Part shown: one piece after another, positions 10,079 through 16,812 of the stretch
Numbering within the stretch: position 1 is the stretch's first letter
Layout of the letters: each line of letters begins with the position of its first letter
Virus record (IMG/VR): IMGVR_UViG_2568526086_000004
Location: 1 to 36,154 of that record
DNA: 36,154 bases
Source: a virus
Lineage: Duplodnaviria > Heunggongvirae > Uroviricota > Caudoviricetes
Reading direction: 5' to 3' (one strand)
The notes under the pieces: model-generated
Told to the model about the DNA's origin: nothing
Seen by the model: the letters and a program-made list of their open reading frames with translations, nothing else
Databases searched by the model: none
Made by a program: the position numbers and the translations under genes

Positions 10079-10096
10079 TGTACCGTTATTCACACA
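10079..10096. promoter_or_regulatory. Candidate Ogr-dependent late promoter element (PF), TGT-N12-ACA dyad
   Basis: ttgTGTaccgttattcacACAaa lies about 85 bp upstream of the FI start. The same motif recurs upstream of V and in the O/P divergent region. Confidence 0.55.
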
Positions 10097-14112: not shown

Positions 14113-14458
14113 TCTCTGCTCCTGTTGATACTGAAAGGGACACAGGCACACCGTTATTCCGCCGCCCGGTCAGCTCCACCACCATTGAACCGTCAAAATT
14201 GCTGTTAATAGTGATGGAATCCAGCGTCAGCCGTGGCTCCCAGCGACTCAGTGCCACATACACAGCCGACATAACCTGCAGGCGTAACGCCGGATTTTGT
14301 GGCTGATCTATCAGTGCCGACAGCAGGGAACCATATTTCCGACGGGCAATGCGGCTACCCTGCGGCGTCAGCAGAATGTCCCGCACCGACTGGCGCAGAT
14401 GGTCAATATCAGTAATGGCTTTACCGTTGGTATTGTTCATCCCGCTATAAAGCGTCAT
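14099..14458 (-). CDS. W: Baseplate wedge protein gpW (gp25-like)
   Basis: 119-aa ORF between V and J. Size and position match P2 gpW. Confidence 0.85.
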   Translation of the reverse strand: MTLYSGMNNTNGKAITDIDHLRQSVRDILLTPQGSRIARRKYGSLLSALIDQPQNPALRLQVMSAVYVALSRWEPRLTLDSITINSNFDGSMVVELTGRRNNGVPVSLSVSTGAENGSD

Positions 14459-15033
14459 ACCGGGCCTCCGGTTGTGTCGCCGCCTTTCAGGACGCCAGTA
14501 TGCTGATGCGCATCAACCACGATCCCGTTAGAACTCATTGCGCCACCCTCCTGGCTGACGCTGCCATTGATCACCATGTCGCTGTTAATACGCGTTCTGT
14601 CTGCTTCCACCACAAACTCACTGGTTTTGTAGGTGACGCTGTCTGCGGCCTCGATTACCACGGATTTGATGCCCCTGACATGCCAGCGTCCGGTGGCGGG
14701 TTCATACTCAAACCAGCCCCCGTCCAAGTACTCCGTCACACTGCCGTCCACAGAATCCGAGGGCGGTGGAAACTGATTGGAATAGATGGCGGGCAGCACA
14801 AAAGCGGTTTCCAGATTGCCGCCCATGCTCAGCACCACCACCTGCTCATCCGGCGACGGACACCACCATGTACGGGCACCACCGGCGCGCAGCGTCAGCC
14901 AGTTAATCCAGTTGGTTTCAAGCTCGCCTACCTTCACCCGGCACAGCCATTTCTTCCGATCCACTTCGGTGACTACACCTGTGCGGATCAGGTTGGTGAT
15001 AAGGCGCATGATTTCGGTCAGTTGTGCATTCAT
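14455..15033 (-). CDS. V: Baseplate spike/hub protein gpV
   Basis: 192-aa ORF that is the first gene of the V operon, preceded by a TGT-N12-ACA dyad. Position matches P2 gpV. Confidence 0.85.
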   Translation of the reverse strand: MNAQLTEIMRLITNLIRTGVVTEVDRKKWLCRVKVGELETNWINWLTLRAGGARTWWCPSPDEQVVVLSMGGNLETAFVLPAIYSNQFPPPSDSVDGSVTEYLDGGWFEYEPATGRWHVRGIKSVVIEAADSVTYKTSEFVVEADRTRINSDMVINGSVSQEGGAMSSNGIVVDAHQHTGVLKGGDTTGGPV

Positions 15034-15079
15034 GTCATTAACTTAAGTGTCATTCGCATCATCTACCAGTAGATAATGA

Positions 15080-15097
15080 TGTACGAAACATGGCACA
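15080..15097. promoter_or_regulatory. Candidate Ogr-dependent late promoter element (PV), TGT-N12-ACA dyad
   Basis: aTGTacgaaacatggcACAat lies upstream of the V start at 15033. Its spacing to the ATG is tight (about 55 bp from the dyad centre), so the exact promoter assignment is uncertain. Confidence 0.45.
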
Positions 15098-15125
15098 ATA
15101 AGGATACTTTTCAGAGGGTTACATA

Positions 15126-15878
15126 ATGAAAAAACAGATTGCAAAAAAAATAATCAATGTGATATTTCCTGAGTTTAGTAATAAAATAACTTGGCTCTTA
15201 GTTATAACTGGAATAGGTATAATCGCACTACCAATTCCATACTATCTAATGGCTCTTAATTTTTTAATTGATATTTATAATAAAAAATTCAATACAGATA
15301 TTGATATAATAAACATAGAAAACGGCAACCCAAGCACAGTAGTGGCCATCACTTTAATTGCTTTTGGATTAATCTACAACTTATTAAGCAAAGCACCTGA
15401 GTGGTACTTTGAAATTATTAAAGACAAAGAAAACAGAGAAGCATCGGAGAGAAAAAGAGACTCTGACGTTAAGTTATATAATGAGTTTATAAAATTATTA
15501 CCACCTGATTCGAAATCAATAGAATTTCTGAAAACCCATGACTTTGGTAATACTTTTCATAACTCCAACCTTAAAGACATGAGTACGTATTGCTATGAAT
15601 GGGGAAAGGCCAATCATCATTTTCATGATGATAACATAGAAAACAAATCAATTGAATTACTCAAAGAAATAACTAAATTTAACTATTTTTTATCCTGTCA
15701 CTCTGGATATTTAAACTGTAGCGAATTCATGTCTATACTTACCGACAGAGAGAGAGCCTCGTGGGATTTAAGCCCTGAGACATCTGAAACCATAAAAAAA
15801 GCTAACAAATGGGGAACTAAAATCCATAAGATGTACTGCGACTTCATTCTATTGTGTAAAAACAACCTCAGCATTTAA
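15126..15878 (+). CDS. AT-rich cargo gene (moron) encoding a 250-aa predicted membrane protein of unknown function
   Basis: It is encoded on the opposite strand to the flanking late genes V and S, in visibly AT-rich DNA. Two N-terminal hydrophobic helices (ITWLLVITGIGIIALPIPYYLMALNFLI and VVAITLIAFGLIYNLL) precede a soluble domain rich in Lys, Asn and Cys/His. Confidence 0.7.
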   Translation: MKKQIAKKIINVIFPEFSNKITWLLVITGIGIIALPIPYYLMALNFLIDIYNKKFNTDIDIINIENGNPSTVVAITLIAFGLIYNLLSKAPEWYFEIIKDKENREASERKRDSDVKLYNEFIKLLPPDSKSIEFLKTHDFGNTFHNSNLKDMSTYCYEWGKANHHFHDDNIENKSIELLKEITKFNYFLSCHSGYLNCSEFMSILTDRERASWDLSPETSETIKKANKWGTKIHKMYCDFILLCKNNLSI

Positions 15879-15914
15879 GTTGAAGAAATGGCAGACTTCT
15901 GCCATTTAACGTAT

Positions 15915-16367
15915 TTAATCTAAATTAGTAATCCATGAATATATAATGTCATTGACTACATTTACTGATACAGAACTAAAACCCAATAATTTGCGCTCTG
16001 CATAGCGGACCTCAGGTCCTTTGCTACTGACGCGATCGCGCAGACCGTAATGGTGAACACGGGCAATACGCTGCACCTTACCTTCAAACTGTACGCTGGC
16101 AGAGTCGGCGCTGGCGGCAGTTTTCAGGTATTTTGTGGTGCGCAGCTTTGCAAACATCTGACGTTTGATGCGCCCCTTTTTACTGCGTGCTGTTACCCGT
16201 CGAGGTTCATAACTGCTGCCATCTGGATTGCGCTGCATTCTGATATTCTGCTGCTGTGTCCGGCGCAGTTCCTGCGCCAGCTGGCGCATCATGCGGCTTC
16301 TTGCGGCTGGTTCCAGATTCGCCAGCAAAGCACTCAGCCAGTCGTCCACCTTCTGCAGTTCAGCCAC
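15915..16367 (-). CDS. S: Tail completion protein gpS
   Basis: 150-aa ORF, the same length as P2 gpS, overlapping the R stop. Confidence 0.85.
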   Translation of the reverse strand: MAELQKVDDWLSALLANLEPAARSRMMRQLAQELRRTQQQNIRMQRNPDGSSYEPRRVTARSKKGRIKRQMFAKLRTTKYLKTAASADSASVQFEGKVQRIARVHHYGLRDRVSSKGPEVRYAERKLLGFSSVSVNVVNDIIYSWITNLD

Positions 16368-16812
16368 GTTTCACCGTCCACATTTCTTCAGGTTCATCGG
16401 GTTCCGCTACAGCTTCAACACTCGACACACTGCCGTCAGTGCTGACCAGCACACTCTCCGTCAGTTGCAGGTTAAGGCTGATATCACAGACATCGTTGCG
16501 CAAAATATCCACCTCAAAGGTGAATAACTTTTCCCGTAACACCGGGTTATTGATTGCATCGGGCTGGTTATCCCGCAGCCACAGCAAAACCGGAGCCATC
16601 AACAGATTCTGGTCGCCGCTGAAATCCTCAATCACCGCGTTCAGGGTGTAACGGTACTCCCACGACATGGAGCTGGCCCCCGTGGCAACCAGCGAACCAT
16701 TATCCACAAACAGATGCAGTTTGTCCGGGTTATTGCGGACATAAGGCACTGCTTTATTGAGGGCGTGACGCAGGGATTGTGGTTTGTTCACTGTTTCGCT
16801 CCTGACACGCAA
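16360..16812 (-). CDS. R: Tail completion protein gpR
   Basis: 150-aa ORF immediately upstream of S in the minus-strand late operon. The start may be internal. Confidence 0.8.
   Translation of the reverse strand: MRVRSETVNKPQSLRHALNKAVPYVRNNPDKLHLFVDNGSLVATGASSMSWEYRYTLNAVIEDFSGDQNLLMAPVLLWLRDNQPDAINNPVLREKLFTFEVDILRNDVCDISLNLQLTESVLVSTDGSVSSVEAVAEPDEPEEMWTVKRG

Follow-up and report, generated by a model that had tools for sequence, protein, structure and literature searches.

The 36,154 nucleotides of the IMG/VR record IMGVR_UViG_2568526086_000004, which were analyzed at full length and are called the window below, carry a P2/186-like prophage. Between its tail genes V and S, at positions 15,126 to 15,878 on the plus strand, lies a gene for a membrane-anchored protein of 250 amino acids (the cargo gene). 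We report that this gene sits in the known but little-studied "orf30" position of phage P2 and that its product belongs to an undescribed protein family with a familiar effector-plus-sensor build. It is a stand-alone accessory ("moron") gene of the orf30 slot. By analogy with characterized systems we propose tentatively, giving the proposal slightly less than an even chance, that it codes for a one-protein factor against phages, of the abortive-infection (Abi) type.

A genuine gene between V and S

The cargo gene starts with ATG, 8 nt downstream of a Shine-Dalgarno sequence (GAGGG, 15,113–15,117), and is the sole long open reading frame (ORF) in the 881-bp gap between two minus-strand genes, that of the baseplate spike protein gpV (14,455–15,033; PF04717, 8e-19, and the Apex motif PF18946) and that of the tail-completion protein gpS (15,915–16,367; PF05069, 5e-41). 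A previous reading of the DNA from its letters alone (the sequence-only reading) had singled out this opposite-strand ORF as strongly AT-rich, which holds: the content of guanine plus cytosine (GC) of the whole ORF is 0.31 as compared to about 0.57 in the flanks (0.30–0.34 and 0.55–0.60, respectively, when measured over 300 nt at a time). The AT-rich island, from approximately 15,034 to 15,985, exceeds the ORF and takes in the last 20 or so codons of S. The cargo protein is identical to WP_029487415.1 of Escherichia coli 14EC029, the locus of which matches at 100% and has gpV labeled as baseplate assembly protein V.

The cargo gene is a genuine gene under purifying selection. Its reading frame is kept in every allele, and the ratio of nonsynonymous to synonymous substitution rates (dN/dS) is 0.18 versus the allele of E. 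coli NC101 and 0.14–0.19 in other unsaturated pairs. Around the cargo region no Rfam families, tRNAs or flanking repeats were found; an insertion of the transposon type was considered and dropped, since neither direct nor inverted repeats flank the gene.

The orf30 slot and its occupants

The site of the cargo gene is the "orf30" position of P2, and the gene belongs by position to the class of accessory genes of this slot: it lies between S and V, it is absent from or replaced in related prophages, and it is AT-rich and on the opposite strand. The sequence-only reading had the location right, the known P2 slot having gone unrecognized. A passage of a 2010 paper (PMC3091744) counts orf30, with reference to Nilsson et al. 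(2004), among three regions of P2 that commonly hold foreign genes.

The V/S backbone of the window is present in 1054 of 5426 complete E. coli genomes. From the ranked backbone matches an evenly spaced sample was taken, 48 rows of which span both V and S; in 33 of these the junction is empty and in the other 15 it is occupied by a single gene, the occupants being of at least eight unrelated kinds. It had been suggested that related prophages might have an empty S-V junction or different cargo there, and both are found. Phage 500465-1 also has an empty junction. The occupants are the cargo gene's own family in three alleles (14EC029, NC101 and SCU-204), a TIR protein (CX12), a DUF6216 protein (BL21 and others), a DUF2971 protein (YZ3E2001), an FRG protein (ETEC4075), a DUF6602 protein (F719) and unrelated hypothetical proteins (W, LF82/Cartapus and NCTC9966). 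The GC content is 0.31–0.38 in all cargo genes examined, and all occupants examined except the TIR gene are directed away from V. The TIR gene of CX12 (locus L041, 956–1756), the sole examined occupant on the strand of V and S, would therefore be co-transcribed with the late genes or read through from them.

Four of the 10 alternative cargoes match PADLOC models of defense systems or defense candidates: the DUF2971 cargo matches PDC-S31 (2e-24), the FRG cargo PDC-S15 (9e-32), the DUF6602 cargo a PD-DExK/NucC-like model (7e-32) and the TIR cargo, weakly, PDC-S66/SpbK.

The alleles of the cargo are only 42–77% identical, whereas the neighboring gpW (next to gpV, minus strand) and gpR (16,360–16,812, minus strand; PF06891) are mostly 84–99% identical, the two viral contigs at the greatest distance being the only ones with values as low as 67–70%. 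In the E. coli loci with other alleles (L002, L003, L030–L034 and L045) the identity to the window is 94–98% for gpW, 96–99% for gpR and approximately 83% for gpV; the lower value for gpV suggests that V, like S, contains recombination breakpoints or has diversified.

All 17 close homolog loci that were tested together have the gene between V and S, and so has the Enterobacter homolog. In the prophage of E. coli 14EC029 an identical V/S cassette is combined with an early region that differs from the window's; the cassette therefore travels from backbone to backbone. Horizontal acquisition and mobility of the cargo, for which its composition and orientation had already been taken to speak, are strongly supported by the empty and variable junctions, by the low GC content of the cargoes and by an allelic divergence that exceeds that of the backbone. 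The early region of 14EC029 carries beside cI and int a PARIS-like pair of an AAA ATPase and a DUF4276 protein (locus L001, 38,910–40,657), which the window does not have. Extending the annotation of 14EC029 to the whole window was rejected, as the two are collinear in the central part only.

The borders of the cassette

The divergent intergenic region between V and the cargo gene (15,034–15,125; 92 bp) contains, besides the Shine-Dalgarno sequence, the dyad TGT-N12-ACA at 15,080–15,097, 28 bp before the cargo ATG. The dyad matches what would be expected of an Ogr-type late activator site for the V promoter; in alignments it is kept in junctions with the cargo family, in those with other cargo (Cartapus) and in empty ones. 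More such dyads are found at 10,079–10,096, upstream of the sheath gene, and at 21,431–21,448 and 21,489–21,506, in the divergent gap between the scaffold and terminase genes, places at which we presume P2 late promoters to lie; across the whole window the count of TGT-N12-ACA is not above chance. A separate transcript of the cargo gene is implied by its orientation alone, and the gene may interplay with late transcription.

Between the converging stops of the cargo gene and S there is a hairpin with a 9-bp stem (15,886–15,907; −14.7 kcal/mol, z = −4.3), the stem of which is conserved in alignment with the NC101 allele while the loop is changed. It looks like a bidirectional terminator; a clear T-run is missing, and a scan for consensus terminators passed it over.

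The 3′ end of S (15,915–15,985, minus strand), comprising the last 20 or so codons after a conserved RRLLG/RKLLG, is AT-rich and specific for the cassette. The last 90 nt of S have a GC content of 0.28 in the window versus 0.56 in an empty junction, and the sequence of the C-terminal tail of gpS changes with each cargo type. Each cassette therefore re-encodes the gpS tail, and the border of the cassette, as judged from these comparisons, falls inside S. The cargo ORF even runs into the end of S in two strains, BL21 and NCTC9966.

An undescribed protein family

Searches of Pfam-A, PHROGs v4 and NCBIfam 20 gave no match for the cargo protein. A match to the PADLOC model "RTasDnaG-like" (E = 0.002, 14.9 bits) was discarded as noise, being located in the transmembrane (TM) region and seen with one of 49 family members. 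The 49 members themselves have no consistent Pfam match, merely two unrelated single-member ones. The remote-homology search proposed in the sequence-only reading thus yielded no meaningful match to a curated family, structural or other. A profile search of 1.84 billion representative proteins revealed 817 relatives at E ≤ 1e-3, 155 of them at E ≤ 1e-10.

Close relatives (41–98% identity) are found in E. coli, Raoultella, Enterobacter, metagenomes and IMG/VR contigs, the three alleles together occurring in at least 32 of the 5426 complete E. coli genomes. A tblastn search of 50,697 phage records gave no match; the family is instead seen in prophages of bacterial genomes and in IMG/VR contigs. 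Many members of the full-length family of approximately 250 amino acids are from marine Gammaproteobacteria. Its members share an FP[DE]F-NK-TW motif and a pair of hydrophobic helices, followed by a charged linker and then by the C-terminal domain. In the alignment of 49 sequences only P15, D114 and F166 are invariant, N19, G29, L82, W159 and N227 being nearly so.

The cysteines and histidines that had been stressed in the sequence-only reading are conserved in the closest clade and lost in the wider family. An HD-type or metal enzyme (H145…H165-F-H167-D168) was considered: none of H145, H165, H167 and D168 is conserved in the 49 sequences, the HFHD motif is restricted to the closest clade and one distant relative, and there is no HD match in Pfam, and therefore the idea was dropped. 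A search for homology of the cargo protein to P2 Orf30, to the 176-amino acid cargo of Cartapus/LF82 or to the DUF6216 protein of BL21 was likewise without result.

Structure and topology

The gene product consists of three parts. The N-terminal membrane module (15,165–15,389, plus strand) comprises the conserved motif FPEFSNKITW (residues 14–23), a first TM segment (residues 21–40), an acidic loop with an amphipathic helix (residues 41–70) and a second TM segment (residues 71–88). It is followed by a charged helical stalk that is continuous with the second TM segment and contains the invariant D114 (residues 89–124; 15,390–15,497, plus strand) and by a predicted cytoplasmic helical-bundle domain (residues 125–250 approximately; 15,498–15,875, plus strand), the module that is also found in fusions with TIR, Schlafen and other TM domains. 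The unit conserved in sequence (C-domain) begins already near residue 108. The two TM helices anticipated previously are thus borne out by hydropathy and are also present in the AlphaFold model.

Whereas a model from 6 sequences was poor, with a predicted local distance difference test (pLDDT) of 56, the model from 49 sequences has a pLDDT of 89.7 (at least 95 over residues 100–250) and a predicted template modeling score of 0.72. Besides a short helix at the N-terminus, this model has helices at residues 20–34 and 39–55, a long helix from residue 71 to 124 with a pLDDT above 90, which includes the stalk, and a bundle from residue 130 to 248 with a small beta element. Foldseek searches of PDB and BFVD with this fold gave nothing below E = 0.2, and a profile search of PDB sequences gave no match. 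With only P15, D114 and F166 being invariant, the plain helical bundle fits a role in binding or sensing rather than in catalysis.

In the family the N-terminus has a net charge of +2.6 and the loop one of −2.1, and 5.9 lysines plus arginines follow the second TM segment, which fits a topology with the N- and the C-terminus inside and a cytoplasmic C-domain. In the TIR fusions the C-domain must be cytoplasmic because these proteins have no TM segments.

Domain combinations and genomic neighborhoods of the relatives

The C-domain (residues 108–250 approximately) behaves in sequence comparisons as a mobile module. Of the 158 C-domain proteins retrieved, 136 have hydrophobic N-termini, which are of at least two unrelated kinds, a long one of the FPDF type and a short one of the hairpin type. 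In other relatives the C-domain stands behind a TIR_2 domain (P0078 and P0104), behind a TIR domain of the CAP12/Pycsar-effector type (PF10137; P0090, P0097 and P0163–P0165) or behind the Schlafen domain AlbA_2 (P0059). No other Pfam domain recurs in the retrieved proteins.

In prophages the cargo gene is alone in its slot, and no neighbor gene is conserved across 15 distant loci. The neighborhoods of the relatives include a Tn7 cargo with TniB/TniQ beside a BrnT toxin as well as methylases, integrases, DDE transposases, AAA_15 and AAA_21 ATPases and HNH nucleases. A TIR-C-domain gene of Novosphingobium adjoins a giant gene of the caspase-like/DEAD helicase type, a HEPN_AbiV-like gene and AAA_23 and AAA_21 ATPases, this being the context of a single locus, as the contigs with TIR fusions are mostly 1–3 kb long. 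Homologs are also found in marine bacteria in non-phage contexts lacking P2 genes.

Comparison with known systems

P2 Orf30 (NP_046770), the product of a nonessential gene, is encoded in the same S/V slot and in the same opposite-strand orientation as the cargo protein. Both are predicted membrane proteins of similar size from AT-rich genes (261 amino acids and a GC content of 0.34 for Orf30; 250 amino acids and 0.31 for the cargo). Where the window has its dyad, 28 bp before the ATG, P2 has an annotated late activator site at a distance of 15 bp from the start of orf30; where the window has its hairpin, P2 has a putative terminator between the stops of orf30 and S. The two proteins are, however, not related in sequence: BLASTP gives E = 0.27, the hidden Markov model (HMM) of the family does not find Orf30 at E values up to 10, and in an all-against-all BLASTP of the cargoes Orf30 matches no family member. 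Orf30 has its hydrophobic segments at the N-terminus, in the middle and at the C-terminus, whereas the cargo protein has an N-terminal anchor and a soluble domain.

In Pycsar, CBASS and related effectors a shared domain senses a signal and a variable N-terminus kills the cell by membrane damage or NAD depletion, the outcome being abortive infection. Like the family of the window, the Pycsar effectors PycTM and PycTIR and the CBASS effectors in which SAVED or STING is joined to TM helices or TIR have one domain combined with either kind of N-terminus, and in several relatives of the cargo protein the TIR domain is of the CAP12/Pycsar-effector type (PF10137). Unlike these effectors, which have a cyclase or CD-NTase gene adjacent, the cargo gene has none beside it, and its C-domain, a helical bundle without a Pfam match, has neither a cyclic nucleotide-binding nor a SAVED or STING fold. 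The likeness is one of logic only, not of membership. Since the protein stands alone without a cyclase, any trigger must be sensed directly.

Single-protein Abi factors with TIR domains have been described, among them SpbK of Bacillus subtilis (PMC12847820) and single-gene TIR systems of E. coli (PMC11350192). In factors of the SpbK type the effector is fused in one protein to a domain that recognizes a phage protein, and the cargo protein is built likewise, with a membrane module in place of TIR. The C-terminal part of the TIR cargo of CX12 does not match the family HMM (E = 1.2). The cargoes matching PDC-S15 (FRG), PDC-S31 (DUF2971) and PDC-S66 share with the cargo gene the slot, the status of single AT-rich genes and, except for the TIR gene, the orientation; in sequence and fold class they are unrelated to it.

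Possible function

How might such a protein act? We propose that it would span the inner membrane with its N- and its C-terminus on the cytoplasmic side, where the helical bundle would detect a cue of infection, probably a phage protein, or would drive self-association. From there the long stalk would relay the signal to the membrane module with its two helices; this module would damage the membrane, probably by oligomerizing, and the infected cell would arrest or die before the phage is completed. As there is no cyclase or other partner, a one-protein Abi factor is the simplest reading; purifying selection together with a deep allelic divergence against a conserved backbone fits it. The earlier suggestion of a single-gene superinfection-exclusion or Abi factor is moderately supported by the absence of a conserved partner, by the defense-like co-occupants of the slot and by the TIR and Schlafen fusions.

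Several observations weigh against an anti-phage role. To our knowledge no phenotype has been assigned to P2 Orf30, the slot's classical occupant, in the decades since it became known. The family is missing from PADLOC-DB v2, and a literature search by slot, accession and keyword found no study of it and no experimental or expression data. The TIR and Schlafen fusions are few (5 of the 150 listed relatives and 3 further matches), and distant homologs have neighborhoods of a mixed kind, with housekeeping genes among them. Pore formation is speculative, as the first hydrophobic segment is weak in several distant members. As for expression in the lysogen, a consensus scan detected no sigma-70-like promoter in the 92-bp gap, and the late activator dyad is as near as 28 bp to the cargo ATG.

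The mixed neighborhoods would also suit a membrane protein of lysogenic conversion that serves host fitness in envelope stress, colonization or signaling and merely uses a permissive slot. We consider this unlikely, as the fusions with TIR, CAP12-type TIR and Schlafen domains and the defense-like co-occupants would be hard to explain, and for signaling there is neither an output domain nor a partner. Quite unlikely is superinfection exclusion, in which genome entry would be blocked at the inner membrane without death of the cell, as with P22 SieA or T4 Imm. It was proposed in the sequence-only reading and agrees with a small, prophage-encoded, predicted inner-membrane protein and with a slot that adjoins baseplate and tail genes; however, the conserved and well-folded part of the protein is a cytoplasmic domain of 140 amino acids, fusions of TIR or Schlafen without TM segments are ill-suited to an entry block from the periplasmic or membrane side, and many homologs are found outside prophages.

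That the cassette re-encodes the gpS tail, that the cargo starts 28 bp from a late activator site and that lysis genes are nearby could point to an adaptor or regulatory subunit, which would need a partner (a host protein, gpS, gpV or the satellite P4) and would either adjust lysis or assembly or act against satellites. We give this only a slim chance: the gpS tail varies with every type of cargo and not only with this family, and homologs are present in marine non-phage contexts that lack P2 genes. Because about two-thirds of the related prophages have no gene at the site, the cargo is dispensable for the phage cycle. Finally, the rarity of the gene and the lack of a detected promoter would also be expected of a decaying, non-functional remnant, for which there is hardly any chance in view of the frame being intact in all alleles, the low dN/dS, the conserved motifs in the 817 relatives and the confidently predicted fold.

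The proposal of a single-protein Abi factor can be widened to one that we hold to be possible but rather doubtful. The bundle of approximately 140 amino acids would define a widespread and undescribed family of one-protein immune sensors, with no fewer than 817 representative clusters from proteobacterial prophages, transposons and islands. It would recognize phage infection directly and be wired in an interchangeable manner to membrane-disrupting, Schlafen and NAD-degrading TIR effectors; the S/V junction would be a third, largely unmined single-gene defense hotspot, each cassette of which would also rewrite the C-terminal tail of the essential gpS.

Other features of the prophage and of sister slots

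A second AT-rich island (GC 0.33–0.39) follows the portal gene at the classical old/tin hotspot. It contains three tightly packed minus-strand genes for hypothetical proteins (24,372–24,887, 24,884–25,531 and 25,540–26,235) and a further ORF of 243 amino acids (26,542–27,273); none of the four has a PADLOC match. The trio may be an uncharacterized three-gene system. Downstream of the replication gene, the region 30,357–32,272 encodes a PAPS reductase-like protein (SspD/BrxP/DndC-like in PADLOC, 5e-23) together with an orphan Dam-type methyltransferase (2e-110). Just outside the ogr/D end of the prophage, beside ybjL, is the gene of the small RNA RybB (2,700–2,778; Rfam, 105 bits); this is probably the region of the attachment site. 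A related prophage from a metagenome has at the Z/fun position an Acyl_transf_3 gene of the O-antigen acetylase type (locus L009, 2,915–3,982); sister slots therefore carry non-defense cargo too.

Significance

Few known carriers of anti-phage genes in E. coli are as rich as the P2-like prophages. The hotspot surveys published so far center on old/tin (between gpA and portal) and Z/fun (PMC9122126; PMC9519451; preprint 10.1101/2024.10.15.618418), and a survey of 2026 (PMC13586616) does no more than touch on defense loci "within the tail genes". The S/V junction behaves as a compact site for single-gene cassettes, with cargo, some of it defense-like, in about one-third of the related prophages, and one of its recurrent occupants comes from a sizeable family outside Pfam, PHROGs, NCBIfam and PADLOC. 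The combination of a membrane anchor, TIR or Schlafen with one common domain yields a concrete and testable hypothesis. If it is not true, the gene is an ordinary prophage moron; if it is true, the family would bring a new sensor module into the repertoire of one-protein defense systems, and the S/V junction would be a cheap site for mining more of them.

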